Shown piece by piece: positions 15,899 through 34,898 of a DNA stretch of 64,000 bases; the first letter of the stretch is position 1, and each line of letters begins with the position of its first letter. The position numbers and the translations under genes were made by a program. The stretch is from Frankiales bacterium. Its GTDB lineage: Bacteria; Actinomycetota; Actinomycetes; Mycobacteriales; SCTD01. The stretch spans positions 18,904 through 82,903 of the forward strand of contig JAOPVP010000043.1 of the NCBI GenBank assembly GCA_025966135.1, in the 5' to 3' direction. A model generated the notes under the pieces. The model was not told the DNA's origin, searched no databases, and saw only the letters and a program-made list of their open reading frames with translations.

Positions 15899-16714
15899 TC
15901 ATTCGTGGACGCGCTTCCTGACGGCCATCAGCGGCCAGGCCGGGCTCAGCCCGTTCCGTCGTACGGCGAAGGGCGAGTCACCGGGTGACATCCGACCCGG
16001 CAGTGCGCTGGCGCAGCTGCGGTAACCCGCCTCCATCACCACCTGCAGGTCGCGATCGGTGTAGTCGACGTCGGGCAGTCCGAAGGGGGCCGAGAAGTCC
16101 AGGACCGGCACGCCGAGTCGGCCTTCGAGCTCGTCCTTGGAGTCGAGTACCTCTCGCCGGGCCGCGCCGGCGCTGAGCAGAGCCAACCTGGCGTGCGTGA
16201 TGGTGTGGGACCCGATGTGCATGCCGGCCTCCAGCAAGCACGTGCAGTCGCGCCACGTGATCTGCTCCTGGCTTTCCCCGGTGACGACCTTGTTCGTGGT
16301 GATGAAGAACGTCGCAGGCACCTTCAGCTCGGCCAGCAGTGGTAGGACGGTGCTCGTCCACTCCTTGTGCCCGTCGTCGAACGACAGGCAGAACCGCGGA
16401 CCCGACAGCGGCACGTCGGAGGCGAGTGCGGACAGACCCTGTTCCCAGGTCAGGAAGTCACCACGGGCCTGCATGGCTGTCAGCTGCTTGCGGAGGCCGT
16501 TCGCGTGATTGTCCGGAACGCCGTGATAGAGCAGGAAGTAGACACCACCGACTGCGTGGGGGAGGCGGCGGGTGAGGCCAAGCGGAGCCAGGACGTACCC
16601 CTGCAACCGTGGTCGGGCTCGCAGCCAGGCTCGGGGACGGGGGAGCACGCCGCCTGCCATAAACGCGCTGGGGCCGTGCCAGTCGTGATCAGCGCTCTCA
16701 GATGCGGTGGACAT
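15899..16714 (-). CDS. Polysaccharide deacetylase (NodB homology domain)
   Basis: LSFDDGHKEW, ATFFITT and GSHTITH motifs. ATG 16714 chosen; the upstream extension to 17056 is Arg/Cys-rich junk. Confidence 0.85.
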   Translation of the reverse strand: MSTASESADHDWHGPSAFMAGGVLPRPRAWLRARPRLQGYVLAPLGLTRRLPHAVGGVYFLLYHGVPDNHANGLRKQLTAMQARGDFLTWEQGLSALASDVPLSGPRFCLSFDDGHKEWTSTVLPLLAELKVPATFFITTNKVVTGESQEQITWRDCTCLLEAGMHIGSHTITHARLALLSAGAARREVLDSKDELEGRLGVPVLDFSAPFGLPDVDYTDRDLQVVMEAGYRSCASALPGRMSPGDSPFAVRRNGLSPAWPLMAVRKRVHE

Positions 16715-16976
16715 GCGCTGGGTTCGTCCTTGTCTCGCTGGCCTGTCCCGCCGACAGGCTGGGCAATCGTCGCCTCGAGGTATCAGGAACGGATCCCCAA
16801 CGCGACGTAGTGCTACGGCCGCGTGCCTGCATGGCGCAGGGGATCGCCTACCTGGCAGCAGGTTGCGGTTTTGGCGGAGGATGTATTTCGGTGACACGGC
16901 TCCCCCTCTCCTCGGGGAAGGAAGCCGTTGGTCGAGCGTCTGGGGCGCTCGGCGGCACCGTCGTACGAGGAGTGAC

Positions 16977-17672
16977 ATGGCGTCAGGGGACGGGGCCCGC
17001 ATCTTGCAGAGGCACACGCTGGTCGTGCTGGCGTGCATCGCTGCAGGAGCCATCACGGCGCTGGTGGTCTCCTCCCAGACGTCACGGACCTACCAGTCCG
17101 AGGCCCAGGTCTTCGTCTCAGCGGGACACACTGCCAACGCCGGCGGCGCGCTCGACCGCGCCCGCTTTGCGCAGGAGCGCATCAAGTCCTACATCCCGCT
17201 CGTCACCAATCCAGCGGTGATGACCGCGGTGGCCAAGGACCTGAAGCTGCGCACGGCACCCGACCGCCTCGCGGAGCAGATCACGGCGAGCTCGCCCCCC
17301 GACACCGTCCTACTGCGGATCATCGCGCGGGATGGCAGTGCGAAGACGGCCCAGAGCCTCGCCAACGCCACCGCGACGCAGTTCTCGAGATACGCCGTCG
17401 CTCTGGAGGGCACGGACGCGGGAGCACCGGCCGTCGAGCTGAGGATCACCAAGCTTGCGGACCAGAGCGGTTCACCGGTGTCCCCGCGGCCGTTGTACAA
17501 CCTCGCGCTGGGGCTCCTCATCGGGGCCGCAGCGGGACTGGCTGTCGCCTCGTTGCGTCAGCGTTGGAGCCCCCTGCCGCGGACCCGTGAGGGGTTCGAG
17601 GAGACGAGCTGGGCACCGCCCACGTTCGTCAGCGCGCCGGAGCCACGTCGTGCGGTGCGCCCGCACCGCTGA
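16977..17672 (+). CDS. Polysaccharide chain-length determinant (Wzz/PCP-type) protein without kinase domain
   Basis: N-terminal TM (LVVLACIAAGAITALVV), then SQTSRTYQSEAQVFVS...PLVTNPAVMTAVAKDLKL, then a C-terminal TM (LALGLLIGAAAGLAVA). Confidence 0.7.
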   Translation: MASGDGARILQRHTLVVLACIAAGAITALVVSSQTSRTYQSEAQVFVSAGHTANAGGALDRARFAQERIKSYIPLVTNPAVMTAVAKDLKLRTAPDRLAEQITASSPPDTVLLRIIARDGSAKTAQSLANATATQFSRYAVALEGTDAGAPAVELRITKLADQSGSPVSPRPLYNLALGLLIGAAAGLAVASLRQRWSPLPRTREGFEETSWAPPTFVSAPEPRRAVRPHR

Positions 17673-17703: not shown

Positions 17704-18714
17704 ATGGCCCAGAGCGTTGGCCGAGTGCTCATCGTCGGCCCGTCGAGGGTGGGCGACATGGCCTGGTTCCTGGCCCTTGCCTACCGGCGGCTGCGGTGGC
17801 AGGTCGTGCAGTTCGACGACCGCGCTTTCGTGGGCAGGCGTCTGCCGGGCGTGGCCGGGACGGCGTTGCAGGTCCTGGAACGGGACCACCGCCTGACGGA
17901 CCGGACGCGGCGGCTCGGTCAACTCGTTCTGGCGAGAGCTGGGGACTGCGACCACGTGGTCACGGTCAAGGGTGAGTACTTCCTCCCGGAGGACGTGGCG
18001 GCCATCTCCTCGCGCGTGCCATTCCTCAACTGGCACCCCGACCACCCGGTCCTCGACCAGAGCTTTGCCTGCATCCCGCACTACACGTCCTTCTGCCCCA
18101 AGGACTCCTGGAGCACGCAGCGCCTGCGCAACATGGGTCACCTCAACGTGACGACGCTGCCGCACGCCTCGGACCCGACGCTGCTCGGTGGTCCGCAGCA
18201 GGAGGCAGCCGGGCCCTCGATGTCCGTCGTGGGCGGCATGTACCCCTACCGTCGGCACTGGATCGACCAGGCCAGGGGGCTCGGCCTGAACGTGCGCATC
18301 TGGGGGAACGACGGTGGGGCAGGCGATCCCGCGGTGATCGCCCGCAAGCGACAGGCGCTCGGTGTCGAGCAGGGCCGTGCCTTGCGGGCCGGCTGCTTCA
18401 CCCTGAACACGCACCACCCGCATGATGTCGCCGGTGGCAACCAGCGCCTGTTCGACGCCGCCGCGGCCTGCGCGCCGCAGCTCACCGAGCGCCTGCCCGA
18501 GTCGGTCAGGCACTTCAAGCCCGACACCGAGATCGCGACGTTCGAGGACCGCGATCAGTTCCTGAGCCAGGTGAGGGAGCTGGTTGCGAACCGACGTCTG
18601 CGCGAGAGTCTCGGACGCAACAGCCACGAACGAGTGCGCGAAGAGCACACCTACGAGCACCGGGTGCAGACCATCCTGACGCTGCTGGGACATCCGCTGG
18701 AGACCGCGTGCTGA
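17704..18714 (+). CDS. CgeB-like glycosyltransferase family protein
   Basis: C-terminal pattern NQRLFDAAAACAP.L......V..F.P..EIATFED..QF...V..L..N..LRE.LG.N..ERV..EHTYEHR typical of the CgeB/Glyco_trans_1_2 family. Confidence 0.6.
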   Translation: MAQSVGRVLIVGPSRVGDMAWFLALAYRRLRWQVVQFDDRAFVGRRLPGVAGTALQVLERDHRLTDRTRRLGQLVLARAGDCDHVVTVKGEYFLPEDVAAISSRVPFLNWHPDHPVLDQSFACIPHYTSFCPKDSWSTQRLRNMGHLNVTTLPHASDPTLLGGPQQEAAGPSMSVVGGMYPYRRHWIDQARGLGLNVRIWGNDGGAGDPAVIARKRQALGVEQGRALRAGCFTLNTHHPHDVAGGNQRLFDAAAACAPQLTERLPESVRHFKPDTEIATFEDRDQFLSQVRELVANRRLRESLGRNSHERVREEHTYEHRVQTILTLLGHPLETAC

Positions 18715-19742
18715 AGCTGGAACGACTTGCCTTCGAGGACGTCGACTGGGCGCGGCTCGACGCGCTCGAGGACCGGGTGCTGTTTCAGACGAGCGCCTGG
18801 CTCTCCTTCGTCGCGGAGACCCAAGGAGCAGAGCCTGTGGTCGCCGTTCTCCGGGAGGGTGGCGACGATCGCGGTTGGTTCACCGGGCTGGTGTGCCAGC
18901 GGTTCGGGGTGCGGGTCCTCGGTGCCCCCATGCCGGGGTGGAGCACGCAGTACCTGGGCTGCAACCTGCTTCCTGGCACGCCGCGCCGAGAAGCGCTTCA
19001 GGCTCTGGTCCCCTTCGCGTTCGGGGAGCTCCGGTGCAGTCATCTCGAGGTCTGCGACCGATGGGCCTCGGTGCCGGACCTGTCGGGCCTCGGTGGGCAG
19101 CACGACGACGTGCCGACGTTCGTGGTCGACCTGAGACCGAGTGAGGGGGAGATCCGCGCGCGCATGACCAGCGGGACTCGGCAGAACCTGCGCAAGGCGG
19201 TGCGCGGCGAGCTGGTGGTCGAGGACGCGGCGCCCGAGGGCTTTGCTGCGGAGTACTACGCCCAGCTGCAGGACGTCTTCGCCAAGCAACGGCTCGTCCC
19301 CACCTATCCGCTCCGGAGGGTGGAGAAGCTCATCGAGCACCTCCACCCGACGGGAAGGCTTCAGCTCATTCGGGTTCGTGCTCCGAACGGCAGGTCCATC
19401 GCCACCGCACTGGTCGCGGGCCTTGGCCAGACCGCGTACTTCTGGGGCGGCGCGAGCTGGCGCTCGCAGCAGCAGCTGCGTCCCAACGAGCTGTTGTTCT
19501 GGCATGCCTTCAGCACCTGGAAGAGTCGCGGCGCGCTGGAGTTCGACTTCGGCGGGGGCGGCGACTACAAGCGCAAGTACGGCGCCAGCGCCTTGTCCGT
19601 GCCCCACGCACGGGTGTCGAAGTGGCGGGTGCTGGCCCATCTGCGGGACGCAGCGAAGCGCTCGGTAGCTGTCCGGCAGCAGGCCGTGGGCGCGCTCCAC
19701 GGCACGTCGGCCAAGCGGGGGAGCAGCACAACGCCGGCGTGA
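18708..19742 (+). CDS. FemAB-like / Acetyltransf_6 (BioF2-like GNAT) acyl- or aminoacyl-transferase
   Basis: FQTSAWLSFV...YFWGGASWRSQQQLRPNELLFWHAFSTWKSRGALEFDFGGGGDYKRKYGA. GTG start overlaps the upstream stop. Confidence 0.7.
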   Translation: MLKLERLAFEDVDWARLDALEDRVLFQTSAWLSFVAETQGAEPVVAVLREGGDDRGWFTGLVCQRFGVRVLGAPMPGWSTQYLGCNLLPGTPRREALQALVPFAFGELRCSHLEVCDRWASVPDLSGLGGQHDDVPTFVVDLRPSEGEIRARMTSGTRQNLRKAVRGELVVEDAAPEGFAAEYYAQLQDVFAKQRLVPTYPLRRVEKLIEHLHPTGRLQLIRVRAPNGRSIATALVAGLGQTAYFWGGASWRSQQQLRPNELLFWHAFSTWKSRGALEFDFGGGGDYKRKYGASALSVPHARVSKWRVLAHLRDAAKRSVAVRQQAVGALHGTSAKRGSSTTPA

Positions 19743-21681: not shown

Positions 21682-21697
21682 CTGAGGTGCTGTCCGT

Positions 21698-23080: not shown

Positions 23081-24205
23081 TCAGTGACCGCCCTCATAGG
23101 CGCCGATGTCCACGGCAGGACCTTGTGGCCGAGGGGCCTCGAGAAGGTCGTAACCGGGTGCCCCCAACGTGGTCCCCGCGTCGAGTGCCGGACTGGTGGA
23201 GCGCAGCCGGAAGTCGCCGCCATCAGACTGGTAGTCCACGAACTGCGGGTTCTGTGTGATGGTGCCCGAACGCGCGGCCCCGCGCCTGAGGCGGTAGCCG
23301 CCCTTGCTGTTGCCGTAGACCAGGTTGTCCGCGTAGGTGTTGTGGCCGACGCGACCGCTCTCACCGATGCCGTAGTGCCCGTTGTAGGCCGCGATGTTGT
23401 TGGTCACGAGGATGTTGCTGGCGAGGCCTGGGGCAACGTCGTTGCCCTCCATCGACCCGCCGATGAGCATGCCGCCCTGCCGGTTCTGGACGAGGGTGTT
23501 GTTGGAGATGGTGATGTTGCTCGCGTTGTGCCACAGGTGGATGCCCCACCCGCTGGTCTGGTAGATCACGTTGTTCAGGATCCGACCGGCGTTCGGGCTC
23601 TGGTAGTAGATGCCGTGGATGCGGGCGCAGTCACCAGGCGCGAGGATGTTGTGGATCACGTTGCCGATGGCGTCGTTGTTCTGAGACGTGTAGCTCTCGG
23701 CCACGATGCCGGCGCCACCGCGCGAGCAGGTCGGAGCGGCCAGGTGGTGGATGTTGTTGCCCAGGAAGGTGCCGTTGGAGCTCGTGGTCACGATGCCGTT
23801 GTAGTCGGCCCGCGTGATCGAGAACTCCTGGATCACGACCCACTGGCCGGAGTTGCTCCACGCGCTCGTGTGCCCAGGCGCGCTGATGATCGCCTGCCAC
23901 CTGCTGTCGGATCGGAAGGTGATCGGCGCGCTGGACGTACCGCTTCGGCTGGAGGTCACCGGGCCATACGTGCCAGGAGCGACGTGTACGACGGTGCCGG
24001 CGCCGGCGACCTGGGCGGCCTTGTTGACCTGCCGGAAGGGTCGGCTGCGGGTGCCTGGGTTGCTGTCGCTCCCCGACGGGGCGACGAACAGCTGCCGTGT
24101 TCCCGTGGTGGCGGTCCCTGGGCCTCCTGTCTTCGAGGGCAGTGTCAAGACCGCGGCCAAGATCACCAGTGGCAACGCGGCAAGGGCTGTCTTGGTGAGG
24201 TGCAT
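23081..24205 (-). CDS. Secreted right-handed parallel beta-helix protein (paralog 3)
   Basis: MHLTKTALAALPLVILAAVLTLPS signal peptide (ATG 24205); same architecture; ends VDIGAYEGGH. Confidence 0.85.
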   Translation of the reverse strand: MHLTKTALAALPLVILAAVLTLPSKTGGPGTATTGTRQLFVAPSGSDSNPGTRSRPFRQVNKAAQVAGAGTVVHVAPGTYGPVTSSRSGTSSAPITFRSDSRWQAIISAPGHTSAWSNSGQWVVIQEFSITRADYNGIVTTSSNGTFLGNNIHHLAAPTCSRGGAGIVAESYTSQNNDAIGNVIHNILAPGDCARIHGIYYQSPNAGRILNNVIYQTSGWGIHLWHNASNITISNNTLVQNRQGGMLIGGSMEGNDVAPGLASNILVTNNIAAYNGHYGIGESGRVGHNTYADNLVYGNSKGGYRLRRGAARSGTITQNPQFVDYQSDGGDFRLRSTSPALDAGTTLGAPGYDLLEAPRPQGPAVDIGAYEGGH

Positions 24206-24272
24206 CCGGGTAGATCTCCTGTGCCCGGAGCGTACCTCCGAGGGCTCGCGGGGCTCGCGCGCCACGGTCGCG

Positions 24273-25493
24273 CTATCTGGTTGGCTCGACATCCGGCACC
24301 TTCAGCTCGGGCACGGTCCGACGTCGAAGCAGCGCGTACCCGACCACCGCAGCCAGACCTTCGCCGCACAGGAGTGCGGTAGGCATGGCCCAGCTACGAC
24401 CGGTCTGCAGACCGGTGAGGACGGCGGCGACCACCAGCACCGGTGGGACGATGTTCATGACGATCCGTTGCGCGTCACCGAACGTTGCTACGAGCCCGAT
24501 CTCGATGACGTACTTGGGGCCCCAGACGACGAGCAACAGCGCGCCCAGGGCTGCGTAGCCACCGGCCTGCGCGTAGCTCGAGCCCAGTGCCGGCGCCAGC
24601 AGCGGGTGCCACAGGAGAACGGCCACACCGACCCCGAGCAGCGGTGGCATGGCCGCCCCGATCGCGGTACGGGCCGTGACAGGGCGGGTGCCGGTGAGCA
24701 GGTGGGGCAGCGCGTTCTGGAGCAGGAGCCACAGGGCGTTGGCGGCCGCTGCGGAAGCCCGCATACCGAGTGCGAACGCCCCGGCCGCCCGCGGGTTGCC
24801 GGTGGAGGCCATGGTCGCGAGCGCCAGAGGCACGGAGATCTGGCCCCCCACACCTGCCGCACCGAACATCAAGGACGTCCTGAGGTGCCGCAGCCAGGCG
24901 GTCCAGGACGGTGTCCAGGTGGGTAGGGACCCATGCCGGGCGAGGATGTACATCGCGACGGTGGCTCCTGCCAGGGGGGACAGCCCGTACCCGAGGGCAT
25001 ACGCGACGCCGTCTCCCGACGGCACCAGGATCCAGGCCACCACAAGGGTGACGACGGCCGCCCAGTTGGCAGCACCTAGCTGCAGCAGCTGGCCCCTGGC
25101 GCGCAACCACCAGTCCGGAAACAGCGCGTACGCCAGCAGGTAGGGGCTCATCGCCAGGAGGAGCCGCCCATCAGGGGCGTGGTAGGCCCGGGTGAGGAGC
25201 AGCACGGCGACGAGTCCGGCGCTGACGACCGCGGCAAGGGCCAGGTAGAGGCTGAAGATCTCGCTGCCCAGCCGTTGTTGCGCAGCCCCGCTGCTGGCAG
25301 CGAGGGTGCGGATGGAGTAGCCGGCCTGGCCAAGGTCAATGGCCCACCAGGCATAGCCGGTCCAGCTGAGGGCTACCGCGAAGAAGGCGAACTCCGAGGC
25401 ACCCAGCCGCCTGGCTACGAGCAAGACACCAAGGAAGGCGACCAGCTTTGGCAGCCAGTCGGACATCACGGTCAACAGCACGGTTCGCCGCAC
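24273..25493 (-). CDS. Wzx-type polysaccharide flippase (MOP superfamily)
   Basis: About 12 hydrophobic spans and N-terminal LPKLVAFLGVLLVARRLGASEFAFFAVA typical of Polysacc_synt. Start uncertain (GTG 25493 chosen; ATG 25466 or 25649 possible). Confidence 0.75.
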   Translation of the reverse strand: MRRTVLLTVMSDWLPKLVAFLGVLLVARRLGASEFAFFAVALSWTGYAWWAIDLGQAGYSIRTLAASSGAAQQRLGSEIFSLYLALAAVVSAGLVAVLLLTRAYHAPDGRLLLAMSPYLLAYALFPDWWLRARGQLLQLGAANWAAVVTLVVAWILVPSGDGVAYALGYGLSPLAGATVAMYILARHGSLPTWTPSWTAWLRHLRTSLMFGAAGVGGQISVPLALATMASTGNPRAAGAFALGMRASAAAANALWLLLQNALPHLLTGTRPVTARTAIGAAMPPLLGVGVAVLLWHPLLAPALGSSYAQAGGYAALGALLLVVWGPKYVIEIGLVATFGDAQRIVMNIVPPVLVVAAVLTGLQTGRSWAMPTALLCGEGLAAVVGYALLRRRTVPELKVPDVEPTR

Positions 25494-25746
25494 CAGGCTG
25501 CTCAGCCCTCTTTGGGCAGTGCCGGGTGGTCGGGTCGGCCTTTCCGCTGCGTCACAGTGGGTTGCCCTCGTCCGGCGTGGGTGGCGGCACCTGTGCCGTC
25601 GTACAACAGGGCAGGTGGTCCGCTGCCTGATACACGCGAAAGCGGCCATCTCGGCGGTCCTCGTCGCGGGTGTATCTGCATCCTTCGAACCCACCTCTCC
25701 TGGGGAAGGTTGTGCTTGGGGTGGCGTGCTGAGTGGGTGAGGCGAC

Positions 25747-27015
25747 ATGAAGACCCTGAGTCGGGTCTCCCGTCGTGCGCTCCTCCGCGCGGGGTCGAGC
25801 GAAGCCGAGTCGCGCGAACCGGCAGGTGACCTCGATGCCGTCCTGCTGGGCGAGAACATGGACATGGCTCACGCGCTTCGAGCCACCGGAGCGCGCGTCA
25901 CGGTCGTCGGTGGGCGGCACACTCCCGCGAGGTTCTCCCGCTACGACTTCCGCTGGCGGGCGGATCCGCGCCCGGGCGATGCGCGGCTCGTGGGTCGACT
26001 CATCGAGCTGGCCGCTGCCCGACCCGCGGCGCTCTTCTACGAGACGGACCGGGACCTGCTGTTCGTCTCCCGGAACCGACATCTGCTGGGCGACGGGCTG
26101 AGGCTCGTGCTTCCTCCCGCCGGCCTCATCGAGCAGCTGGTGGACAAGGGAGCGTTCGAGGCCCTGGCCCAGCGGTTGGACCTCTGCGTCCCGCCGAGCT
26201 GGGTGATCCGCACGGGCCGCCCGCGAAGAGCCCTCGACGTGCAGTTCCCGGTGTTGGTGAAGCCGTGCATGCGGGATGCGCTCTGGGCGGGGAGGGCGCA
26301 TGGGCAGAAGGCCTTCGTCGTGCATGACGCCGCTCAGCTGGATGAGTTCCTCGGGGGGCTGGCCGGGACCTACGACACGGTGGTCGTGCAGACCTACGTT
26401 CCCGGCTCGGAGACACGGGTGGAGAGCTATCACGTCTACATCAACGCAGCGGGCCACATCGCTGCAGAGTTCACCGGACGCAAGATCCGCACCTGTCCGT
26501 CGGAGAACGGCTTCTCGACGGCGCTCATCACCACGGACAGCGCGGATGTCAGGGAGCTCGGCAGGTCGGTCGTACGTGCCCTGAACCTCGTCGGAGTCGC
26601 GAAGCTCGACTTCAAACGAGACCCGGACGGGAAGCTGTGGCTGCTCGAGGTCAACCCCCGGTTCAACCTCTGGCACCGGATCGGGGCCAAGGCAGGCGTC
26701 AACATCCCTCAGATCGTGATGGCCGACCTGTGCGGACGTCCGCGCCCGCCAACGCCCGCCGCGCGTCCCGGGGTCGCTTGGTGTCATGTGCCGAAGGACC
26801 TTCTGGCGGCGCGCGAAGCCGGGCTCACGTGCCGTCAGTGGCTCAGCTGGGCGCGAAAGTGCGACACCACCACGGGTCTCGACGTCACCGACCCGCTTCC
26901 CTTCCTCGCGGGCAGGCTCTGGCCACTCGTCGCGGCAAGGGTCCGACCGACCACCGCGGTCCGTGGTCACGCGAGCCCGCCATCCTCCGACGGCACGCAA
27001 CCGCTTGCAGGCTAA
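25747..27015 (+). CDS. ATP-grasp domain protein (predicted carboxylate-amine ligase, COG3919-like)
   Basis: FPVLVKP, VVVQTYVPG and AKLDFKRDPDGKLWLLEVNPRFNLWH match ATP-grasp core elements. Confidence 0.8.
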   Translation: MKTLSRVSRRALLRAGSSEAESREPAGDLDAVLLGENMDMAHALRATGARVTVVGGRHTPARFSRYDFRWRADPRPGDARLVGRLIELAAARPAALFYETDRDLLFVSRNRHLLGDGLRLVLPPAGLIEQLVDKGAFEALAQRLDLCVPPSWVIRTGRPRRALDVQFPVLVKPCMRDALWAGRAHGQKAFVVHDAAQLDEFLGGLAGTYDTVVVQTYVPGSETRVESYHVYINAAGHIAAEFTGRKIRTCPSENGFSTALITTDSADVRELGRSVVRALNLVGVAKLDFKRDPDGKLWLLEVNPRFNLWHRIGAKAGVNIPQIVMADLCGRPRPPTPAARPGVAWCHVPKDLLAAREAGLTCRQWLSWARKCDTTTGLDVTDPLPFLAGRLWPLVAARVRPTTAVRGHASPPSSDGTQPLAG

Positions 27016-27018: not shown

Positions 27019-27825
27019 ATGCGCTACGCCGTTCTCTCCGACATCCACGCGAACCTGCACGCCCTCCGAGCAGTGCTGACAGCACTTGAAAGCCGCGGTG
27101 TCGAGAGCTACGTGTGCGCCGGTGACATCGTGGGCTATGGACCCTTCCCGAACGAGTGCGTCGAGCTGGTCGCAGGGCTGGGAGCGCAGTGCGTGGCAGG
27201 CAACCATGACCTCATCGCGGCGGGGGCCCTGAGTGAGGCACGTTCCGGCACGCTCGCGCGGCAGACGCTGGCCTGGACCCGTGACGTCATGACGGCACAG
27301 ACGCGCTGCTACCTCGCCGGACTGCCCCGTACCCGCACGTTCGGCGGCCTCCTGGTCGCGCACGGCTCACCGCACGACCCGGAGGAGTACGTGCGCACCC
27401 CCGAGCGGGCGCGTGAGCTGATGAACGAGGTCGCTGACCCGAGGGTGCATGCGCTCGTCCTTGGTCACACCCACCACCAGTGGGCAGTCAGCGCGCGGGA
27501 CGGGCAGCTGCTGCACCGCCATCCCGGCAGCGTCTCGCTGCGACCCGAAGGGCGATACGTGCTCAACCCGGGCAGCGTCGGCCAGTCACGTGACGGCGAC
27601 ACACTGGCTCGGTTCCTCGTCCTCGACACGACCGCGTGGACCGCTGAGTTCTGCACCGTGCAGTACGACGCCATCGCGTCCGCCGGCGCGTTGCGGCGGG
27701 CGGGCCTCCCCGTGCGGAGCCTGCACGCAGGCGACCGGTCGCTGCGAGAAATCGCGCTGGGAGCCCGGCGACGGGTCTCGGGCTGGCGCGGGCGCGTGCC
27801 ACCCCTCAGCGGCCGGCACAGCTAG
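27019..27825 (+). CDS. Metallophosphoesterase (calcineurin-like, YfcE-type)
   Basis: LSDIHAN, GDIVGYGP, GNHD and GHTH motifs; 3 nt after the ATP-grasp stop. Confidence 0.85.
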   Translation: MRYAVLSDIHANLHALRAVLTALESRGVESYVCAGDIVGYGPFPNECVELVAGLGAQCVAGNHDLIAAGALSEARSGTLARQTLAWTRDVMTAQTRCYLAGLPRTRTFGGLLVAHGSPHDPEEYVRTPERARELMNEVADPRVHALVLGHTHHQWAVSARDGQLLHRHPGSVSLRPEGRYVLNPGSVGQSRDGDTLARFLVLDTTAWTAEFCTVQYDAIASAGALRRAGLPVRSLHAGDRSLREIALGARRRVSGWRGRVPPLSGRHS

Positions 27826-27919: not shown

Positions 27920-29095
27920 GTGGAGTTCGGCTGGAGCGAAGAGCAGTCAGCCCTGCGTGAGCAGGCGGTGCGATTCGGCCGCGAGATGCTCGACGGCGGC
28001 GTCCTCGAGGACGACCTGTCCGGCCGCTTTCCCGCCGAGAAGTGGCGGTTGCTCGCTGACTGGGGCTACTTCGGGCTCGCGGTGCCGGAGGAGCTCGGGG
28101 GACCCGGACTGGACCCCATGACCGGACTGCTCGTCACCGAGGGCTTGGCCGAGGGCTGCCAGGACTTTGGCCTGCTCTTCTCGGCAAGCGTGCAGGCATG
28201 GGTCGTGATCGGCGCGCTGCTCCGCTTCGGCACCGAGGACCAGCTGGACCGGCACCTGCCCGGGCTCGCCGACGGCACGACGGTCGGTGCGCTCGCGATC
28301 ACGGAGCCCGACTGCGGGTCCGATGCCCTGTCCCTCCGCACCACCGCCCGCGAGGTCCACGGCGGCTGGCTCCTCCGAGGTCGCAAGGCGTACGTCACCA
28401 ACGCGCCCATCGCCGATCTGGTGCTCTGCTTCGCGTCCTCCGGGGCAACGCAGCTGCTCGGAGGCATGAGCGCCTTCCTCGTCGAGACGTCGCGCGAAGG
28501 TGTCCACCGCGGCTCGGTCGAGCCGAAGATGGGCCTGCGCACGTCGCCCTTGGGCGAGCTCGGTCTCGATGACGTCTTCGTGCCCACCGGGGAGCTGCTC
28601 GGCAAGCTCGGCCGCGGCGTCGCCGTCTTCCACGACGCGATGGCCTGGGAGCGCACCTGGCTGACCGCCCTGCAGGTCGGGACCCTGCAGCGCCAACTGG
28701 ACGAGACCAGGGCTTACGCGTGCGAGCGCCGGGCCTTCGGCATCCCCATCGCCGGCCACCAGTCGGTGGCCCACCGGATCGTCGACATGCACCTGCGGCT
28801 GGAGTGCGGCCGGTTGCTCGTCTACCGCGCCGCCGCCGCCATCGCCGCCGGTCGCCCGGCGGGGACCGAGGCCGCGCTCGCGAAGCTGTGGATGAGCGAG
28901 AGCGCGCTCGCCAGCAGCCTGGACAGCCTGCAGGTGCACGGCGGCAACGGCTACCTCAGCTGTAGCGGTGTGGAGCGCCAGGTGCGCGACGCCGCAGGCG
29001 GCCAGATCTACTCCGGTACCTCCGAGATGATGCGCAACCTGGTCGCGGACAGCCTCGGTCTGCACGCACGACCCACAACTGTGGCCGTGGAGTGA
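27920..29095 (+). CDS. Acyl-CoA dehydrogenase-family flavoprotein (candidate acyl/aminoacyl-S-carrier-protein dehydrogenase)
   Basis: Full-length ACAD architecture (GALAITEPDCGSD, WITNA-like YVTNAP, C-terminal QIYSGTSEMMRNLVA); GTG start with GGAG 10 nt upstream. Confidence 0.9.
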   Translation: MEFGWSEEQSALREQAVRFGREMLDGGVLEDDLSGRFPAEKWRLLADWGYFGLAVPEELGGPGLDPMTGLLVTEGLAEGCQDFGLLFSASVQAWVVIGALLRFGTEDQLDRHLPGLADGTTVGALAITEPDCGSDALSLRTTAREVHGGWLLRGRKAYVTNAPIADLVLCFASSGATQLLGGMSAFLVETSREGVHRGSVEPKMGLRTSPLGELGLDDVFVPTGELLGKLGRGVAVFHDAMAWERTWLTALQVGTLQRQLDETRAYACERRAFGIPIAGHQSVAHRIVDMHLRLECGRLLVYRAAAAIAAGRPAGTEAALAKLWMSESALASSLDSLQVHGGNGYLSCSGVERQVRDAAGGQIYSGTSEMMRNLVADSLGLHARPTTVAVE

Positions 29096-29099
29096 CGGG

Positions 29100-30650
29100 G
29101 TGGCCTTCCGCGTCGAGCACCTGCTGAGGGACGCAGCGGCTGCCCGGCCTCTGGCGACGGCCCTGCGTGCCGGGGACGCCGAGGTCACGTGGGCCGAGCT
29201 CGACGCCGCCTCCGACCGCGTCGCCAGCTGCCTGGTGGGCCAGGGCATCGGTGTCGGGGACCGGGTGGGCCTCTACCTCGACAAGGGCGTGGAGGCCGTC
29301 GCCGCGCTCTACGGCACGATGCGCGCCGGCGCAGCGTATGTCCCCATCGATCCTGATGGCCCCGTGGTACGCGCGGCTGCGATCGCGACCGACTGCGCGC
29401 TTGCGGCGATCATCTCGGACCCCAGGCGGGTCGCGGCGCTCCGGGCGGTCGCCCCGGCGGCGGCGCCCGGCGGCATCGTGTGCGGCGACGCCATCGAGGG
29501 GTTCGTCTCCTGGACGCAGGTCCAGGAGAGCCAGCCCCGGGAGCCTGCGCGCCCGGTCGTAGAGACGGACCTGGCGTACGTCCTGTACACGTCCGGCTCC
29601 ACCGGACGGCCGAAGGGCGTGGCGATCACCCACCGCAACGCGCTCACCTTCGTGAGCTGGGCACGCGACGTGCTCGGGCTCCAACCTGACGACGTGCTGT
29701 CCAATCACGCGCCGCTCCACTTCGACCTGTCGACGCTCGATCTGTTCGGCGCAGCGTCGGTCGGCGCAACCACGTGTCTGGTGCCCGAGGCGGCCGCCAG
29801 CTTCCCGGCGCAGCTGGCCCGTTGGATCGACGACTCGGGAATCACGGTCTGGTACTCCGTGCCCACGGCGCTGTCCATGCTGGTGCGCTACGGCAACCTG
29901 GCGTCGGTTCCCTTCTCCGCCCTCCGGCTCGTCCTGTTCGCAGGCGAGGTCTTCCCCAACCGTTACCTGTCCGAGTTGATGCGTCTTGTTCCAGATCCCC
30001 GGTACTTCAACCTGTTCGGTCCGACAGAGAGCAACGTCTGCACCTACTACGAGGTCACCGAGCCGCCGACCCTGCACAGCTGCCTCCCGATCGGTACGGC
30101 CTGCGCCAATAGCCGGTGCGAGGTCGTGGACGAGGCGGGCGTCGTACGCCACGGCATCGGCGTACAGGGCGAGCTGGTTGTCACGGGCCCAGGGGTGGCG
30201 CAGGGCTACTGGGGCAACCCCGAGCTGACCGCGGAGCGCTTTCCGGCTCCCCACACCTACCGCACCGGCGATGTCGTCGAGGTCATGGACGACTCCCACA
30301 ACCCGTCCTTCCGCTTCCTCGGTCGTCGGGACCAGCTCGTGAAGACCCGCGGGTACCGGGTGGAGCTCGGCGAGGTCGAAGCGGCGCTGTACGCCCACCC
30401 GCATGTTCGCGAGTGCGTCGCGGTGCCTGTCCCCGACGAGGCCGTCGGCAACCGCATCCTTGCGTTCTGCGCCCCGGCGGGCACCGTGTCCGAGGGGGAC
30501 CTGGCTGAGGCGTGTCGAGGGCGCTTGCCCGCCTACATGGTTCCGGAGCGGATCGTCTTCGTGGACGCCCTCCCCACGACACCGAACGGCAAGTACGACC
30601 GGAAGCGGCTGGCGGAGAGTGCCGCTGGTCTGACAGGAGTGTCCAGGTGA
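29100..30650 (+). CDS. Stand-alone amino-acid adenylation enzyme (ANL superfamily, NRPS A-domain type)
   Basis: Core motifs MRAGAAYVPID, LAYVLYTSGSTGRPKGV, FDLS, NLFGPTE, GELVVTGPGVAQGYWGNPELT, YRTGD, GRRDQLVKTRGYRVELGEVE, LPAYMVP and NGKYDRKRL. Confidence 0.9.
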   Translation: MAFRVEHLLRDAAAARPLATALRAGDAEVTWAELDAASDRVASCLVGQGIGVGDRVGLYLDKGVEAVAALYGTMRAGAAYVPIDPDGPVVRAAAIATDCALAAIISDPRRVAALRAVAPAAAPGGIVCGDAIEGFVSWTQVQESQPREPARPVVETDLAYVLYTSGSTGRPKGVAITHRNALTFVSWARDVLGLQPDDVLSNHAPLHFDLSTLDLFGAASVGATTCLVPEAAASFPAQLARWIDDSGITVWYSVPTALSMLVRYGNLASVPFSALRLVLFAGEVFPNRYLSELMRLVPDPRYFNLFGPTESNVCTYYEVTEPPTLHSCLPIGTACANSRCEVVDEAGVVRHGIGVQGELVVTGPGVAQGYWGNPELTAERFPAPHTYRTGDVVEVMDDSHNPSFRFLGRRDQLVKTRGYRVELGEVEAALYAHPHVRECVAVPVPDEAVGNRILAFCAPAGTVSEGDLAEACRGRLPAYMVPERIVFVDALPTTPNGKYDRKRLAESAAGLTGVSR

Positions 30651-30913
30651 AGGACCACCAGGAGCAGACGCCGGTGGACGCGGTCAGGCAGGTGCTGTCC
30701 TCCGTGGTGGGTGCGAACCGCGTGCAGCAGGTGCGCGACGACGACCTCATCTTCGAGCACCGGGTCATCGACTCACTGCACGTGGTCGAGTTCGTGGAGA
30801 GGATCGAGACGACCTTCGGTCTCGAGGTGGACGGCGCCGACCTCACCTCGGAGAACTTCTCCTCGCTACAAGCGATCGCGCGGTTCGTCGAGGCCCGGCA
30901 GGCGGTGTCGTGA
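30647..30913 (+). CDS. Acyl/peptidyl carrier protein (88 aa)
   Basis: GTGA overlap with the adenylation gene; VIDSLHVVEFVERIETTFG carries the phosphopantetheinyl-Ser motif. Confidence 0.8.
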   Translation: MKDHQEQTPVDAVRQVLSSVVGANRVQQVRDDDLIFEHRVIDSLHVVEFVERIETTFGLEVDGADLTSENFSSLQAIARFVEARQAVS

Positions 30914-31692
30914 CGCGGGGGGAGGCCGAGCGGAGTCGGTGCTCCACCCTCCTGGCCAAGGCGCGCAAGGTCGGAGGGGCGATGCTGCGGAGGCTCGTCT
31001 GCATCCACACGATTGATGTCGTGGGGCGCTCTACGGCGACGGCTCCTCCCACCGTGCGCTGCGACCCGCAGCTCGTCCTGCACCAGGTGACGAGCCTCGA
31101 CAGCGTCGTTGGAGCTGCCCCTGGGCAGCGTGACTGGCCGATCATCGACCTGGTGGCACGGATCCGACCCCTCGGCCGGCGGTTGCGCGCCCGCCGCAGG
31201 GAGCGGAACGCCGAGCGGCTTGCGAAGGGCGACCTGGCCTACGTGGCCACGGCTGGCGCGGACGTGGCGGCGTGGATCTGGGTCAGCCGTGAGCCGTCGG
31301 TCCACTGCCGCTGGAGCGGGCTGCACTTCTCCCTGGAGCCCGACGAGGCCTACATCTACGACCTGTGGTCCTTCCCTGCTCATCGAGCGACGGGTGCCGG
31401 CGCCTTCGTCATGCAGGGCCTGCTCGAGGACCTGCGCCGCCGCGGCGAGGTCAGCAGGGTCTACGGCTACATCCTGCGGGACAACCGACCCAACCAGGTG
31501 CTGACCCGCGTCGTCTTCGGCTTCGAGCAGGTGCAGCGCGTCAAGGACCTGCGCGTCCTGAGCCGGCTGGCGTGGCAGCTGCCCTTCACCGAGGACCCCC
31601 GCGTCGGGCCGTGCTCGCGTCCGCCCCTGGCCTCCCGACGGCGACCACGTGGCGGCGCGGTGTACTCGGCGGATTCTGCGCGCCTGTCCTGA
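30910..31692 (+). CDS. GNAT-fold acyltransferase-like protein
   Basis: GTGA overlap with the carrier protein gene. IYDLWSFPAHRATGAGAFVMQGLLEDLRRRG resembles GNAT motif A (R/Q-x-x-G-x-G/A), followed by RDNRPNQVLTRVVFGFE. Confidence 0.55.
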   Translation: MTRGEAERSRCSTLLAKARKVGGAMLRRLVCIHTIDVVGRSTATAPPTVRCDPQLVLHQVTSLDSVVGAAPGQRDWPIIDLVARIRPLGRRLRARRRERNAERLAKGDLAYVATAGADVAAWIWVSREPSVHCRWSGLHFSLEPDEAYIYDLWSFPAHRATGAGAFVMQGLLEDLRRRGEVSRVYGYILRDNRPNQVLTRVVFGFEQVQRVKDLRVLSRLAWQLPFTEDPRVGPCSRPPLASRRRPRGGAVYSADSARLS

Positions 31693-31796: not shown

Positions 31797-33089
31797 GTGC
31801 TGGACCCCCAGGTGGCCGCCGACGGCGGTCGACCGCTCCGCATCGTCCTCCTGTCCTATCGGAGCAAACCGCACTGCGGCGGGCAGGGCGTCTATGTCCG
31901 CCACCTCTCCCGCGAGCTGGCAGTCCTCGGCCACGAGGTCGAGGTGCTCAGCGGACCGCCGTACCCGGAGCTGGATCCCGGGGTGACGCTGACGGTGATC
32001 CCGTCGCTGGACCTGTACCGCGAGCCCGACCCATTCCGGGTGCCGTGGCCCAAGGAGTTCAAGACCTCCATCGACGTGCTGGAGTTCGCCCTCATGTGCA
32101 CGGCGGCGTTCCCCGAGCCGCTGACGTTCAGCTTGCGCGCGCACCGCGAGCTGCGTCGTCGCACGGTCATGCCGGACGTCATCCACGACAACCAGACGCT
32201 CGGCTACGGGATGCTCCGGATGCAGCGCGACGGGATGCCGATCATCGCCAACGTCCACCATCCGATCACGGTGGACAGGACCCTCGACCTGGCTGCGGCG
32301 CCGTTGCGTAAGAAGTTCTCGACCCGGCGCTGGTACTCCTTCCTGCGCATGCAGAGGCGCGTCATCCAGCGGATGCCCACCCTCGTCACGGTCAGTGAGA
32401 ACTCCCACGACGACATCGTGCGCGACTTCGGCGTCGACCCGGCGAAGATGCGCGTCATCCCCGTCGGGGTGGAGCACGACGTGTTCGTCCCCCCGGCACT
32501 GCCGCGCGTGCCGGGGCGCATCGTCGCCACGGCCAGCGCCGACGTCCCGCTCAAGGGCATCGTCCCGCTGCTCGAGGCGGTGGCGAAGCTCCGCACCGAG
32601 CGTGATGTCGAGCTCGTCGTGGTCGGGAGGGCCAAGGAGGGCGGCGCCGCGGCGCGCACGATCGAGCGCCTGGGGCTCGAGGACTCGGTGCGGTTCGTCA
32701 CCGGGGTCAGTGAGGCCGAGCTCGTGCAGGTCTTCGGCTCCGCCCACGTAGGGGTGGTGCCGTCGCTCTACGAGGGCTTCAGCCTCCCGGCGATCGAGCT
32801 GATGGCCTGCGCGACGCCGCTCGTGGCCACCACCGCCGGGGCCCTGCCCGAGGTGGTGGGCGACGCCGCCCTCACCGTCCCGCCGGGTGACACCGAGGCG
32901 CTGGCCGCCGCCATCGCGCGGGTGCTCGACGACGACGACCTGGCGGCTGCGCTCGGCGCTGCCGGGCGCGAGCGGGTCATGGCGAACTACACCTGGACCT
33001 CGGTCGCCGAGCAGACCGTGCAGTGGTACCGCGACTACCTCGGCGAGGCCGTCCCTGCCTCCCCGCAGCCCAAACAGAAGGGGGCCTAG
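31797..33089 (+). CDS. Glycosyltransferase family 4 (GT-B fold)
   Basis: LRIVLLSYRSKPHCGGQGVYVRHLSRELAVLGHEV N-terminus and PSLYEGFSLPAIELMACATPLVAT motif; GTG start with AGGAG upstream. Confidence 0.85.
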   Translation: MLDPQVAADGGRPLRIVLLSYRSKPHCGGQGVYVRHLSRELAVLGHEVEVLSGPPYPELDPGVTLTVIPSLDLYREPDPFRVPWPKEFKTSIDVLEFALMCTAAFPEPLTFSLRAHRELRRRTVMPDVIHDNQTLGYGMLRMQRDGMPIIANVHHPITVDRTLDLAAAPLRKKFSTRRWYSFLRMQRRVIQRMPTLVTVSENSHDDIVRDFGVDPAKMRVIPVGVEHDVFVPPALPRVPGRIVATASADVPLKGIVPLLEAVAKLRTERDVELVVVGRAKEGGAAARTIERLGLEDSVRFVTGVSEAELVQVFGSAHVGVVPSLYEGFSLPAIELMACATPLVATTAGALPEVVGDAALTVPPGDTEALAAAIARVLDDDDLAAALGAAGRERVMANYTWTSVAEQTVQWYRDYLGEAVPASPQPKQKGA

Positions 33090-33823
33090 TGCTCACGGTC
33101 GACTTCGAGCAGTTCCCGGTCGGCCCCGGGGACCGCGTCCTCGATATGGGCTGCGGCGGTGGGCGGCACGCGTTCGCGCTCTACCGCCGCGGCGCCGACG
33201 TGGTCGCGTTGGACATGAGCCAGAAGGACCTTCTCGAGGTCGAGACGATGTTCCGCGCGATGGAGCTCGAGGGCGAGGTACCGGCAGGCGCCAGTGCCAC
33301 GGCGGTGCGCGCAAACGCCTACGCGTTGCCGTTCGAGGACGCCTCCTTCGACCGGATCATCGCCGCGGAGGTCCTGGAGCACCTGCCTGCGGACACCGAC
33401 GCGATGGCCGAGCTCACCCGGGTCCTCAAGCCGGGCGGCCTCATTGCCGTCACCGTCCCGCGGTGGTTGCCCGAGAAGGTCTGCTGGGCGTTGTCCGACG
33501 ACTACCACGAGGTCGAGGGCGGGCACGTCCGGATCTACAAGGGCTCCCAGCTGCGGACCCGCCTCGAGAGGACCGGCCTGGTCCACCAGGGCGGGCACCA
33601 CGCGCACGGGTTGCACGCGCCGTACTGGTGGCTCAAATGCGCCGTCGGCGTGACCAACGACAAGAACCCCCTCGTGCGGGCGTACCACTCGTTGCTCGTG
33701 TGGGACATGGTCAAGCAACCGCTCGTGACCCGCGTCGCCGAGAAGGTGCTGCAGCCGCTGGTCGGGAAGTCCCTGGTCGTCTACCTGCGCAAGCCGACGA
33801 AGAGTGCCAGTGCGGCGGCCTGA
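33089..33823 (+). CDS. Class I SAM-dependent methyltransferase (Methyltransf_11 type)
   Basis: VLDMGCGGGRHAF, FDRIIAAEVLEHL and LKPGGLIAVTVP; GTG 33089 overlaps the upstream TAG by 1 nt. Confidence 0.85.
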   Translation: MLTVDFEQFPVGPGDRVLDMGCGGGRHAFALYRRGADVVALDMSQKDLLEVETMFRAMELEGEVPAGASATAVRANAYALPFEDASFDRIIAAEVLEHLPADTDAMAELTRVLKPGGLIAVTVPRWLPEKVCWALSDDYHEVEGGHVRIYKGSQLRTRLERTGLVHQGGHHAHGLHAPYWWLKCAVGVTNDKNPLVRAYHSLLVWDMVKQPLVTRVAEKVLQPLVGKSLVVYLRKPTKSASAAA

Positions 33824-34898
33824 GCTGCGCGGGCTGCCGGGCGTGCTCACGCAGGTCCAGCTCCAGCAGACCGTGGAGGCCATCGCGGCCGCTCAGCAGC
33901 GCTCCGGGTCCCTGCCCTGGCCGGACGGCCACACCGACGCCTGGGACCACGTCGAGTGCGCGATGGTCCTGACCCTCGGCGGCCGACTCGACGAGGCGCA
34001 GCGTGCCTATGCCTGGCTGCGCCGCACCCAGGCCACCGACGGCTCGTGGGCCACGTCCTACGACGAGCTCCAGATCCTCGACCCCATGGTCGACGTCAAC
34101 CAGTGCGCCTACGTCGCCGTCGGCACGTGGCAGTGGTGGACCGTCACGGGCGACCGCGTGCTGCCGGAGAAGATGTGGCCACACGTGCGCCGCGCCCTCG
34201 ACCTGGTCTGCGACATGCAGGCGCCATCAGGGGAGATCTGGTGGGCGCGCGACGGACTGGTGCCCCGCAAGGAAGCCCTGCTCACCGGGTCCGCGTCGAT
34301 GTACCAGTCGTTGCGCTGCGGGATCGCCCTCGCCGCGCTGATGGGGGAGCCGCAGCCCGAGTGGGAACTGGCCGCCGGCCTGCTGCAGCACGCCGTCGCG
34401 CACCATCCTGACGTCTTCATGGACAAGAGCCGGTTCTCGATGGACTGGTACTACCCGGTCCTGGGGGGCTCGGTTCGCGGCCGGATGGCCCAGGAGCTGT
34501 TCGCGGCCCGGTGGGACGAGTTCGTGGTCCCGGGTCTCGGCTGCCGTTGCGTCTCGGACCGACCCTGGGTGACAGGAGCCGAGACCGCGGAGCTCGCACT
34601 CTCGCTGCTCGTCACCGGTGACCCGGACGGTGCCCGCCAGCTCCTGGCGGACGCCCAGCACCTCCGTCACGACGACGGCTCCTACTGGACCGGCCTGGTG
34701 TACGACGAGGACGTCCGCTGGCCAGCTGAGCGCAGCTCGTGGACTGCAGCGGCCATGGTGCTGGCGGCCGACGCGCTCGCGGGCGGCCCGTCGCTGGCGC
34801 TGTTCGCCGCGGACGACCTTCCCACCGGCGTGCTCCTCCCCGCCGACGCCTGCCACGAAGAGGGCGCCCCCTGCGCCGGCGGTGCCCTCCGCGGCTGA
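33804..34898 (+). CDS. Alpha/alpha-toroid protein (prenyltransferase / terpene-cyclase-like repeat fold); function unknown
   Basis: Repeated DGSW/DGSYW-type motifs (TQATDGSWAT, HDDGSYWTG) spaced as in squalene-cyclase/prenyltransferase beta-subunit repeats; overlaps the upstream MTase end. Confidence 0.55.
   Translation: MPVRRPELRGLPGVLTQVQLQQTVEAIAAAQQRSGSLPWPDGHTDAWDHVECAMVLTLGGRLDEAQRAYAWLRRTQATDGSWATSYDELQILDPMVDVNQCAYVAVGTWQWWTVTGDRVLPEKMWPHVRRALDLVCDMQAPSGEIWWARDGLVPRKEALLTGSASMYQSLRCGIALAALMGEPQPEWELAAGLLQHAVAHHPDVFMDKSRFSMDWYYPVLGGSVRGRMAQELFAARWDEFVVPGLGCRCVSDRPWVTGAETAELALSLLVTGDPDGARQLLADAQHLRHDDGSYWTGLVYDEDVRWPAERSSWTAAAMVLAADALAGGPSLALFAADDLPTGVLLPADACHEEGAPCAGGALRG

Follow-up and report, generated by a model that had tools for sequence, protein, structure and literature searches.

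A predicted proline-activating carrier-protein cassette with its own GNAT gene in an actinobacterial polysaccharide locus

The triad of proteins that converts proline to pyrrole on a carrier protein belongs to the textbook repertoire of antibiotic and pigment biosynthesis; here, similar genes were found among polysaccharide genes. We analyzed a 64-kb stretch of DNA (about 69% GC) from a Frankiales bacterium, hereafter called the window, in which four consecutive plus-strand genes (27920-31692) encode a flavoprotein, a stand-alone adenylation enzyme, a carrier protein and a protein of the GNAT fold. This cassette is situated in a Wzx/Wzy-type glycan locus that occupies the first 35 kb of the window and is followed, from 35 kb onward, by housekeeping genes. 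A first-pass annotation made from the sequence alone had proposed that the four proteins attach a proline-derived pyrrolyl-2-carboxyl group to a polysaccharide.

The first gene (27920..29095) encodes a 391-aa flavoprotein of the acyl-CoA dehydrogenase (ACAD) family, a predicted (dehydro)prolyl-S-carrier-protein dehydrogenase, in which the Pfam domains Acyl-CoA_dh_N, Acyl-CoA_dh_M and Acyl-CoA_dh_1 were detected with 81, 80 and 128 bits; a GGAGG motif lies 8 nt upstream of its start. It is separated by a 4-nt gap (29096-29099) from the gene of the adenylation enzyme (29100..30650, 516 aa; AMP-binding 277 bits, AMP-binding_C 67 bits), which is predicted to be an L-proline--[carrier protein] ligase. 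This gene shares a GTGA start/stop overlap with the gene of the 88-aa carrier protein (30647..30913; PP-binding 30.6 bits, cut-off 20.8), whose phosphopantetheine site is Ser43 in the IDSL motif of the stretch VIDSLHVVEF. A second GTGA overlap leads into the gene of the 260-aa GNAT-fold protein (30910..31692; Acetyltransf_1 25.5 bits, cut-off 20.7), a predicted acyl-carrier-protein-dependent N-acyltransferase of an uncharacterised family. The coordinates of the open reading frames (ORFs) agree with the gene arrangement given in the first-pass annotation, and the other features it had listed, namely all ten core motifs of the adenylation domain, the carrier-protein serine and the motif HRATGAGAF of the GNAT, were also present. 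The carrier-protein gene is kept in all cassette loci that we recovered. A promoter and terminator scan of the window returned nothing above shuffled sequences, and no Rfam family reached its gathering score.

Predicted proline activation and oxidation on the carrier protein

The specificity code of the adenylation enzyme reads DLLYLALVCK, both in a MAFFT alignment with its family and in a gap-free HMMER alignment to the PltF structure 6o6e. PltF, an L-proline--[L-prolyl-carrier protein] ligase, is also the best single-domain PDB match (344 bits, compared with about 225 bits for DltA and adenylation domains of nonribosomal peptide synthetases (NRPS)). It reads DLLYLALVC and is identical to the window enzyme at 9/9 compared positions, Lys517 being outside the compared PltF segment. 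Over the 117-residue pocket segment, the gap-free alignment to PltF scored 116.8 bits, whereas DltA and all others reached at most 49 bits. The second proline ligase in the PDB, 7thn, reads DLFYIAWVC. The code of the window enzyme further fits the published consensus of stand-alone L-proline adenylation domains, L(L/F)YLALVC (PMC3874040); the exact string DLLYLALVCK gave no literature match, and it was a substring search that reached this paper on LmbC and CcbC. Among the nearest homologues, many of which carry the JGI name L-proline--[L-prolyl-carrier protein] ligase, the pattern DL(L/F)Y(L/I/V)A(L/F)V(C/I)K is kept in all 120 of 120, and the amino-acid adenylation model TIGR01733 scored 362 bits on the window enzyme (cut-off 317). 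Because its code equals that of PltF, fits the published consensus and is kept in its homologues, we regard the enzyme as very probably a PltF-type activator of L-proline that would load Ser43 of the carrier protein. The proposal that DLLYLALVCK is the code of stand-alone proline-activating enzymes was thereby borne out; code and pocket score both point to L-proline, and fatty-acid, aryl-acid and D-alanine substrates are very unlikely on the specificity code.

The pairing of an adenylation enzyme with a carrier protein for the decoration of a cell-wall glycopolymer is well known from a single system, DltABCD, which modifies teichoic acids. A Dlt-like D-alanylation (or another amino-acid or fatty-acid system) was considered as a rival. 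DltA models do score 268-274 bits on the window enzyme, and some of its homologues in databases bear the name D-alanine--poly(phosphoribitol) ligase. However, the code of DltA (3dhv, DLMTLCTVA) is unlike that of the window enzyme at 5/9 positions while that of PltF is identical, and the pocket scores are 49 against 117 bits. The Dlt system moreover uses D-alanine and transfers it outside the cytoplasm by the MBOAT protein DltB and by DltD; the window scans revealed neither MBOAT/DltB nor DltD, and D-alanylation does not involve an ACAD. The Dlt system was rejected on these grounds, and we give the whole group of such explanations next to no weight.

A stand-alone proline adenylation enzyme with the PltF code, a discrete carrier protein and an ACAD encoded in one operon are shared with the triads PltF/PltL/PltE, RedM/RedO/RedW, PigI/PigG/PigA and CloN4/CloN5/CloN3. 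With respect to membership in this group, the code and a discrete, serine-bearing carrier protein encoded beside the adenylation enzyme are both present in the window. The flavoprotein has PigA (345 bits) and RedW (326 bits), both prolyl-carrier-protein dehydrogenases, as the top two of 22 matching ACAD-family NCBIfam models, followed by acryloyl-CoA reductase with 263 bits, yet neither of the first two reaches its equivalog cut-off (500 and 650 bits, respectively). Its best PDB matches are the prolyl-acyl-carrier-protein dehydrogenase AnaB (4irn, 264 bits), the acyl-carrier-protein dehydrogenase TcsD (257 bits) and PigA (257 bits), with ordinary ACADs beginning at 229 bits. Several members of the flavoprotein family carry the JGI name L-prolyl-PCP dehydrogenase.

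The position of the catalytic base gave a similar picture. Glu244 of the flavoprotein (AWERT) aligns with the glutamate of AnaB (EWERG), PigA (IWEKG; alanine in the PigA entry 6af6) and TcsD (DWERC), and the glutamate typical of medium-chain acyl-CoA dehydrogenases (YEG in 4m9a) is replaced by serine in the window protein (IYSGTSE) as well as in AnaB, PigA and TcsD. Since this base position is shared by some ordinary ACADs, among them a generic ACAD of locus L003 (QER/YGG), this feature is supportive and not diagnostic. In a neighbour-joining tree with two outgroups and unreliable support values, the cassette ACADs were placed beside a group of AnaB, PigA, TcsD and the homologue from locus L023, apart from generic ACADs, and approximately equidistant from AnaB, PigA and TcsD. 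The tree, which was meant to tell two-electron from four-electron chemistry, favoured neither. Besides the sub-threshold PigA and RedW scores, the identity in the trimmed alignment, which is 37% to PigA and 38% to the generic ACAD 4m9a, speaks against a specialised role. Taken together, the flavoprotein probably oxidises the prolyl group on the carrier protein, as judged from its sequence relationships.

How far this oxidation would proceed is a separate matter. AnaB performs a single two-electron oxidation to pyrroline-5-carboxyl-acyl carrier protein, which feeds a polyketide synthase (PKS) in anatoxin-a biosynthesis. The three protein types of AnaC/AnaD/AnaB correspond to those of the window, and AnaB is the best PDB match of the flavoprotein; the PKS, in contrast, is absent from the window. 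We somewhat favour pyrrole over pyrroline as the oxidation product because a pyrroline thioester is normally an intermediate of chain extension and nothing encoded here could extend it. Of the conversion of proline to a pyrrolyl-2-carboxyl group put forward in the first-pass annotation, proline activation was upheld, and the best matches of the flavoprotein (PigA, RedW and AnaB) are in keeping with oxidation on the carrier protein; the four-electron extent of the oxidation is less secure, because the scores are below the equivalog cut-offs and the equally close AnaB stops at pyrroline.

A GNAT gene family linked to the carrier-protein gene

The cassette differs from the proline-to-pyrrole triads in its downstream partners. 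Ketosynthase, condensation, thioesterase and halogenase domains were found in none of the scanned ORFs of the window, in agreement with the first-pass annotation; there is no transferase of the CloN2/CloN7 type either, and the triad-like genes are instead combined with a GNAT gene and a Wzx/Wzy setting. For off-loading, the role that had been suggested for the GNAT, there is no other conserved candidate.

A profile search returned 61 relatives of the GNAT, all with E-values below 1e-43 and all unnamed or generically named. An AlphaFold (AF2) model computed from 45 sequences (pLDDT 88.6) displays a GNAT core that is extended at its N-terminus by a helix and a strand. Foldseek comparison with the PDB recovered VipF, the mycothiol synthase MshD, a tandem GNAT of the clavulanate pathway, a glucosamine N-acetyltransferase, WecD and glycine N-acyltransferase, with TM-scores of 0.4-0.5 and E-values down to 2e-7 against GNAT structures. 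Arg159 and Gly162 of motif A are invariant in the family, and the pyrophosphate-binding loop is intact.

Wherever a locus offers sufficient sequence, the GNAT gene adjoins the carrier-protein gene, and this holds for the variant cassettes described below as well. Start/stop overlaps occur in the window and, by called-gene coordinates, also in L001 and L020. At the stand-alone loci L001 and L003, the GNAT is the sole possible release enzyme. Because of this strict gene coupling and the lack of any other release enzyme, the carrier protein, and not acetyl-CoA, appears reasonably likely to be the source of the acyl group for the GNAT. Some observations nevertheless count against such a role: in a sensitive Pfam scan of 45 family members only generic GNAT models matched, and neither Foldseek nor Pfam indicated specific similarity to NodA, FeeM, SbzI or MbtK-type enzymes. 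The same 45 members gave no match to NodA (PF02474, even at E-values up to 1), FeeM-type, LuxI or HlyC models. Acetyltransf_8, which we take to be the MbtK/IucB type, matched weakly in 14/45 members.

The restriction to generic models would be in line with another explanation, in which the GNAT were an ordinary acetyl-CoA-dependent acetyltransferase and the thioester were hydrolysed or released by an unlinked enzyme, giving pyrrole-2-carboxylate or dehydroproline; the intact R-x-x-G-x-G/A loop for the CoA pyrophosphate fits this explanation as well. Against it stand the strict synteny and the start/stop overlap with the carrier-protein gene, together with the coupling of the GNAT family to a second, unrelated set of carrier protein and adenylating enzyme. 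Furthermore, the same loop binds the phosphate of phosphopantetheine in SbzI (PMC11685415). We therefore consider an acetyl-CoA-dependent function quite improbable.

The second set was found in five loci (L007, L016, L026, L036 and L038; cassettes at L007:442-6096, L016:6869-11987 and L036:8773-15288), where a GNAT of the same family occurs with an AsnB-like amidotransferase, a carrier protein and a different adenylating enzyme. These variant cassettes have no ACAD, and in L016 the carrier-protein and adenylation parts are joined in one ORF. The code of the variant enzyme, TYYPTAMR(A/V)K, lacks Asp235, and the enzyme is therefore not an activator of alpha-amino acids. In L036, the variant is located in a glycan locus, between an Acetyltransf_6 gene and genes for Wzy, a CE4 deacetylase, a GT2 glycosyltransferase and an epimerase. 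Since the GNAT family also pairs with this different set, carrier protein and GNAT would form the constant pair and the supply genes would be interchangeable; this retention of the pair provides the best available argument for transfer from the carrier protein by the GNAT.

Carrier-protein-dependent GNATs have been documented but are rare, the examples being SbzI, FeeM and GdvG/AprG (PMC11685415). They demonstrate that a protein of the GNAT fold is able to draw its acyl donor from a carrier protein. Their acceptors are small molecules, and the top 50 Foldseek matches of the window GNAT include none of them.

The same four types of protein are encoded by mbtK-mbtL-mbtM-mbtN of mycobactin biosynthesis (a GNAT, an acyl carrier protein, a fatty acyl-AMP ligase and an acyl-acyl-carrier-protein dehydrogenase), which bring a fatty acid to a lysine of the siderophore. 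The logic of adenylation, loading, desaturation on the carrier protein and GNAT-mediated transfer to an amine would be alike in both systems. A cassette of the mbtK-N type was rejected, however, because the window enzyme is of the amino-acid type by TIGR01733 (362 bits) in place of a fatty acyl-AMP ligase, and the MbtN model reaches just 69 bits on the flavoprotein (cut-off 700).

Genomic context and the likely acceptor

The gene order ACAD, adenylation enzyme, carrier protein, GNAT was recovered in about 15 loci of Actinomycetota from at least four orders. Carriers include Frankiales, Geodermatophilus sp. CPCC 205506 (locus L002, in which the GNAT gene is inverted), Solirubrobacterales, Acidimicrobiia, other metagenome-assembled genomes of Actinomycetota and soil metagenome contigs; the metagenome scan used a six-sequence GNAT alignment. 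The homologue of Streptomyces hokutonensis (L023), with about 49% identity in the adenylation protein, belongs to an ordinary NRPS cluster with condensation domains and MbtH, in the order ACAD, carrier protein, adenylation enzyme, and without a GNAT. Because a relative at this distance is found in such a setting, the GNAT-linked cassette represents a distinct clade.

In order to describe the genomic surroundings, we tallied 18 unique loci with usable flanks, the window and the variant L036 included. Glycan-type neighbours, namely genes for a FemAB-like GNAT, a cytoplasmic CE4 deacetylase, an ATP-grasp enzyme, a GT4 glycosyltransferase or Wzx, were found in 12/18 loci (the window, L002, L004, L005, L012, L019, L020, L021, L022, L029, L035 and L036). 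The commonest partner is a FemAB-like gene of PF13480, which is directly adjacent in eight loci (L004, L005, L012, L019, L020, L021, L022 and L036). CE4 deacetylase genes lie near the cassette in seven loci, and six loci are without one; at the loci checked (L004, L005, L019 and, for its 308-aa protein, L020), the CE4 proteins have neither a signal peptide nor a transmembrane segment, and one small CE4 protein weakly matches the HfsH model. Wzx genes are found near the cassette in L004, L005, L020 and L029. In L020, the GNAT, Acetyltransf_6 and GT4 genes overlap start to stop.

Based on this co-location, a glycan is a plausible acceptor, for which we see about an even chance. Several findings pull in the opposite direction. 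No glycan genes were found within 10 kb in 6/18 loci (L001, L003, L009, L010, L011 and L013), and these include the two closest cassettes, L001 and L003 (73% and 69% identity in the adenylation protein), which lie among pst/phoU, sugar ABC transporter and miscellaneous genes. A Pfam scan of 43 flanking ORFs of L009, L010, L011 and L013 revealed no glycan family. In the window itself, the cassette is separated by 9-12 kb from the CE4 (11 kb) and FemAB-like genes and has neither as a direct neighbour. The glycan acceptor suggested in the first-pass annotation was accordingly supported in part: the co-location recurs in distant lineages, but the closest relatives and four further loci are placed among unrelated genes. 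Homologous cassettes are neither consistently located away from glycan genes (12/18 near) nor strictly linked to them (6/18 alone). Two genes for X-Pro dipeptidyl-peptidases (Peptidase_S15 and PepX_C) were noted among the flanks of L009, L010, L011 and L013; they may be related to proline supply or be there by coincidence.

The isolated loci lend themselves to an explanation in which the product is a soluble small molecule. The GNAT would then move the proline-derived acyl group to a free amine, for example of an amino acid, a polyamine or a thiol-sugar, in a manner resembling the FeeM N-acyl amino acid synthases or MbtK, and the proximity to glycan genes would be incidental or a matter of co-regulation. 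Four genes suffice for a complete route of activation, modification and transfer, and the known carrier-protein-dependent GNATs act on small molecules (PMC11685415). This explanation does not account for the rare PF13480 gene directly adjacent in eight loci, for the CE4, GT4, Wzx or Wzy genes in 12 loci of distant lineages, or for the overlapping genes of L020, and no exporter or regulator is consistently linked to the cassette. We regard it as rather unlikely, though the most probable of the rivals to a glycan sugar acceptor.

The identity of the commonest partners suggests yet another acceptor, namely the N-terminus of an amino-acid or short-peptide branch on a glycan or on a peptidoglycan-like precursor, which would receive a pyrrole-carbonyl N-cap. 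PF13480 FemAB-like proteins and ATPgrasp_Ter proteins with a C-terminus like that of D-Ala-D-Ala ligases are both of peptide-bond-forming types, and L005 and L019 contain several copies of such partner enzymes. On the other hand, many cassette loci have no ATP-grasp gene, and the FemAB-like and ATP-grasp enzymes have no known donor or acceptor. A peptide-branch acceptor is hence improbable in our view, less so than an acetyl-CoA-dependent GNAT.

For transfer to a glycan sugar, the following sequence of steps can be proposed. The adenylation enzyme would adenylate L-proline and thioesterify Ser43 of the holo carrier protein, a step for which the sequence argues strongly. The FAD-dependent flavoprotein would then carry out two successive two-electron oxidations to pyrrolyl-2-carboxyl-S-carrier protein, as PltE, RedW, PigA and CloN3 do, or alternatively a single AnaB-like oxidation to a pyrroline-carboxyl thioester. 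The GNAT would move the acyl group from this thioester to an amine and thus regenerate the holo carrier protein. In the last and most speculative step, the likeliest acceptor would be an amino sugar of the surrounding Wzx/Wzy-dependent glycan: a cytoplasmic CE4 enzyme may de-N-acetylate an N-acetylhexosamine of the lipid-linked repeat unit, and acylation would yield an N-(pyrrole-2-carbonyl)hexosamine. An amine on an amino-acid side branch added by FemAB-like or ATP-grasp enzymes could serve in its place. Wzx would subsequently flip the acylated unit, followed by polymerisation by Wzy. The complete course from activation via oxidation and GNAT transfer to a glycan amino sugar is possible, its chances being slightly short of even.

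The deacetylation and acylation in this scheme have a counterpart in nodulation factor genes, where the cytoplasmic CE4 deacetylase NodB exposes an amine on the sugar, which NodA then acylates from the acyl carrier protein NodF; HfsH is a further cytoplasmic CE4 enzyme. The CE4 genes without signal peptide near the cassette are reminiscent of NodB and HfsH, but the window transferase is not of the NodA family and its acyl group is predicted to be proline-derived. Lincosamide biosynthesis offers a second parallel, in which a stand-alone proline-type adenylation enzyme (LmbC or CcbC) and a carrier protein act with LmbD or CcbD, and a prolyl group becomes amide-linked to an amino sugar (PMC3874040). 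Unlike the window cassette, that system employs a condensation enzyme that is not a GNAT, has no ACAD and makes a small-molecule antibiotic. A study by Mori et al. of 2023 is said to deal with this condensation of a prolyl group with an amino sugar.

When the variant cassettes are taken into account, the GNAT family could tentatively be seen as the transferase of a hitherto unrecognised cytoplasmic glycan acylation system of soil Actinomycetota. Its carrier protein would present acyl groups from swappable supply modules, either a proline adenylation enzyme with an ACAD for pyrrole-2-carbonyl or a non-amino-acid adenylating enzyme with an AsnB-like amidotransferase, and the GNAT would attach them to a Wzx/Wzy polysaccharide, at an amino sugar that has been de-N-acetylated or at an amino-acid branch. 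This generalisation is less secure than the proposed route in the window.

Our literature searches, which were of incomplete coverage, found neither a pyrrole-2-carbonyl or other proline-derived acyl group on a polysaccharide nor a GNAT coupled to a prolyl or pyrrolyl carrier protein; a paper on Actinoplanes exopolysaccharide proved unrelated. The combination of the triad with a dedicated GNAT, outside NRPS and PKS pathways and often in polysaccharide loci of widespread soil Actinomycetota, suggests a new use of this element. If the acceptor were a glycan, the repertoire of surface polymers would gain a pyrrole or dehydroproline acyl group. With a pyrrole, a bacterial cell-surface polymer would for the first time be seen to bear a heteroaromatic substituent. 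There would then also be a cytoplasmic counterpart to the Dlt system, and the short list of carrier-protein-dependent GNATs would be extended by a new family. A cultured carrier of the cassette, Geodermatophilus sp. CPCC 205506, exists, and the four proteins are small and soluble.

Neighbouring genes of the window

Besides the cassette, the glycan locus encodes Wzy_C, an AsnB-like amidotransferase, several GT4 proteins, a GT2 protein, an NDP-sugar epimerase, a UDP-sugar dehydrogenase, a CE4 deacetylase, a Wzx-like flippase, polysaccharide lyases and beta-helix proteins. The cassette is part of a run that starts with genes for an ATP-grasp enzyme and a metallophosphoesterase, continues after the cassette with genes for a GT4 protein and a methyltransferase and one unknown gene, and is divergent from the gene of the Wzx-like flippase (24273..25865, minus strand; Polysacc_synt 33 bits). 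The ATP-grasp enzyme (25747..27015, plus strand; ATPgrasp_Ter 29.9 bits and a Dala_Dala_lig_C match) may be an amino-acid ligase of the same pathway, and ATPgrasp_Ter genes are also found beside the cassette in L004, L005 and L019. In L019, this domain is fused to a flavoprotein resembling Lys/Orn-N-monooxygenases (818 aa; L019:4361-6817), and the two occur as separate adjacent genes beside the cassette in L004 (L004:14513-16955). The metallophosphoesterase gene between the ATP-grasp gene and the cassette (27019..27825, plus strand; Metallophos_2 73 bits) was not found in related loci. The GT4 glycosyltransferase gene (31797..33089, plus strand; Glycos_transf_1 103 bits) lies 104 bp downstream of the GNAT gene. 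At the end of the run, a 364-aa protein (33804-34898, plus strand) with faint matches to Pfam TPR models and repeated DGSW/DGSY motifs is absent from all related loci.

Further upstream, the FemAB-like GNAT of the window (Acetyltransf_6; 18708..19742, plus strand; PF13480 56 bits) is encoded 9 kb from the cassette. The CE4 polysaccharide deacetylase (15899..17056, minus strand; Polysacc_deac_1 73 bits, weak NodB and PdaB matches) has no signal peptide and is a candidate provider of the sugar amine. Its longest ORF begins with a long Arg/Pro-rich stretch, the catalytic domain starting near residue 219, and the true start is probably internal because this stretch has no counterpart in homologues. 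A glycosyltransferase-like gene (17455-18714, plus strand) has a similarly long Arg/Pro-rich N-terminus, whose look alone suggests an internal start.

Three paralogues of a right-handed beta-helix protein are encoded at 19800-24292 (minus strand), the first of which has a Malectin domain at its N-terminus, and Polysacc_lyase proteins are encoded at 4817-6238 (plus strand) and 7162-8835 (minus strand). Both groups resemble secreted enzymes, by which the polymer would be cut or remodelled. Some NCBIfam matches in the locus show weak parallels to XrtA/PEP-CTERM exopolysaccharide loci, all of them below cut-off: the amidotransferase (1442-3340) matches TIGR03108 with 419 bits, the FemAB-like protein matches TIGR03019 with 23.5 bits, and the second-best model of the adenylation enzyme is the exosortase-A-associated ligase TIGR03098 with 286 bits.

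The housekeeping part of the window contains genes for TerC, uvrA, an L,D-transpeptidase, an SsgA-like protein, uvrC, rapZ, yvcK, whiA, gap, pgk, tpi, opp, pgl and opcA. Two of its ORFs, at 59518-62169 (883 aa) and 47663-48676 (337 aa), both on the plus strand, are without a Pfam match and have a coding-like GC content at third codon positions. The SsgA-family protein of sporulation and cell division (42303-42848, minus strand), encoded between the L,D-transpeptidase gene and uvrC, fits a sporulating actinomycete.

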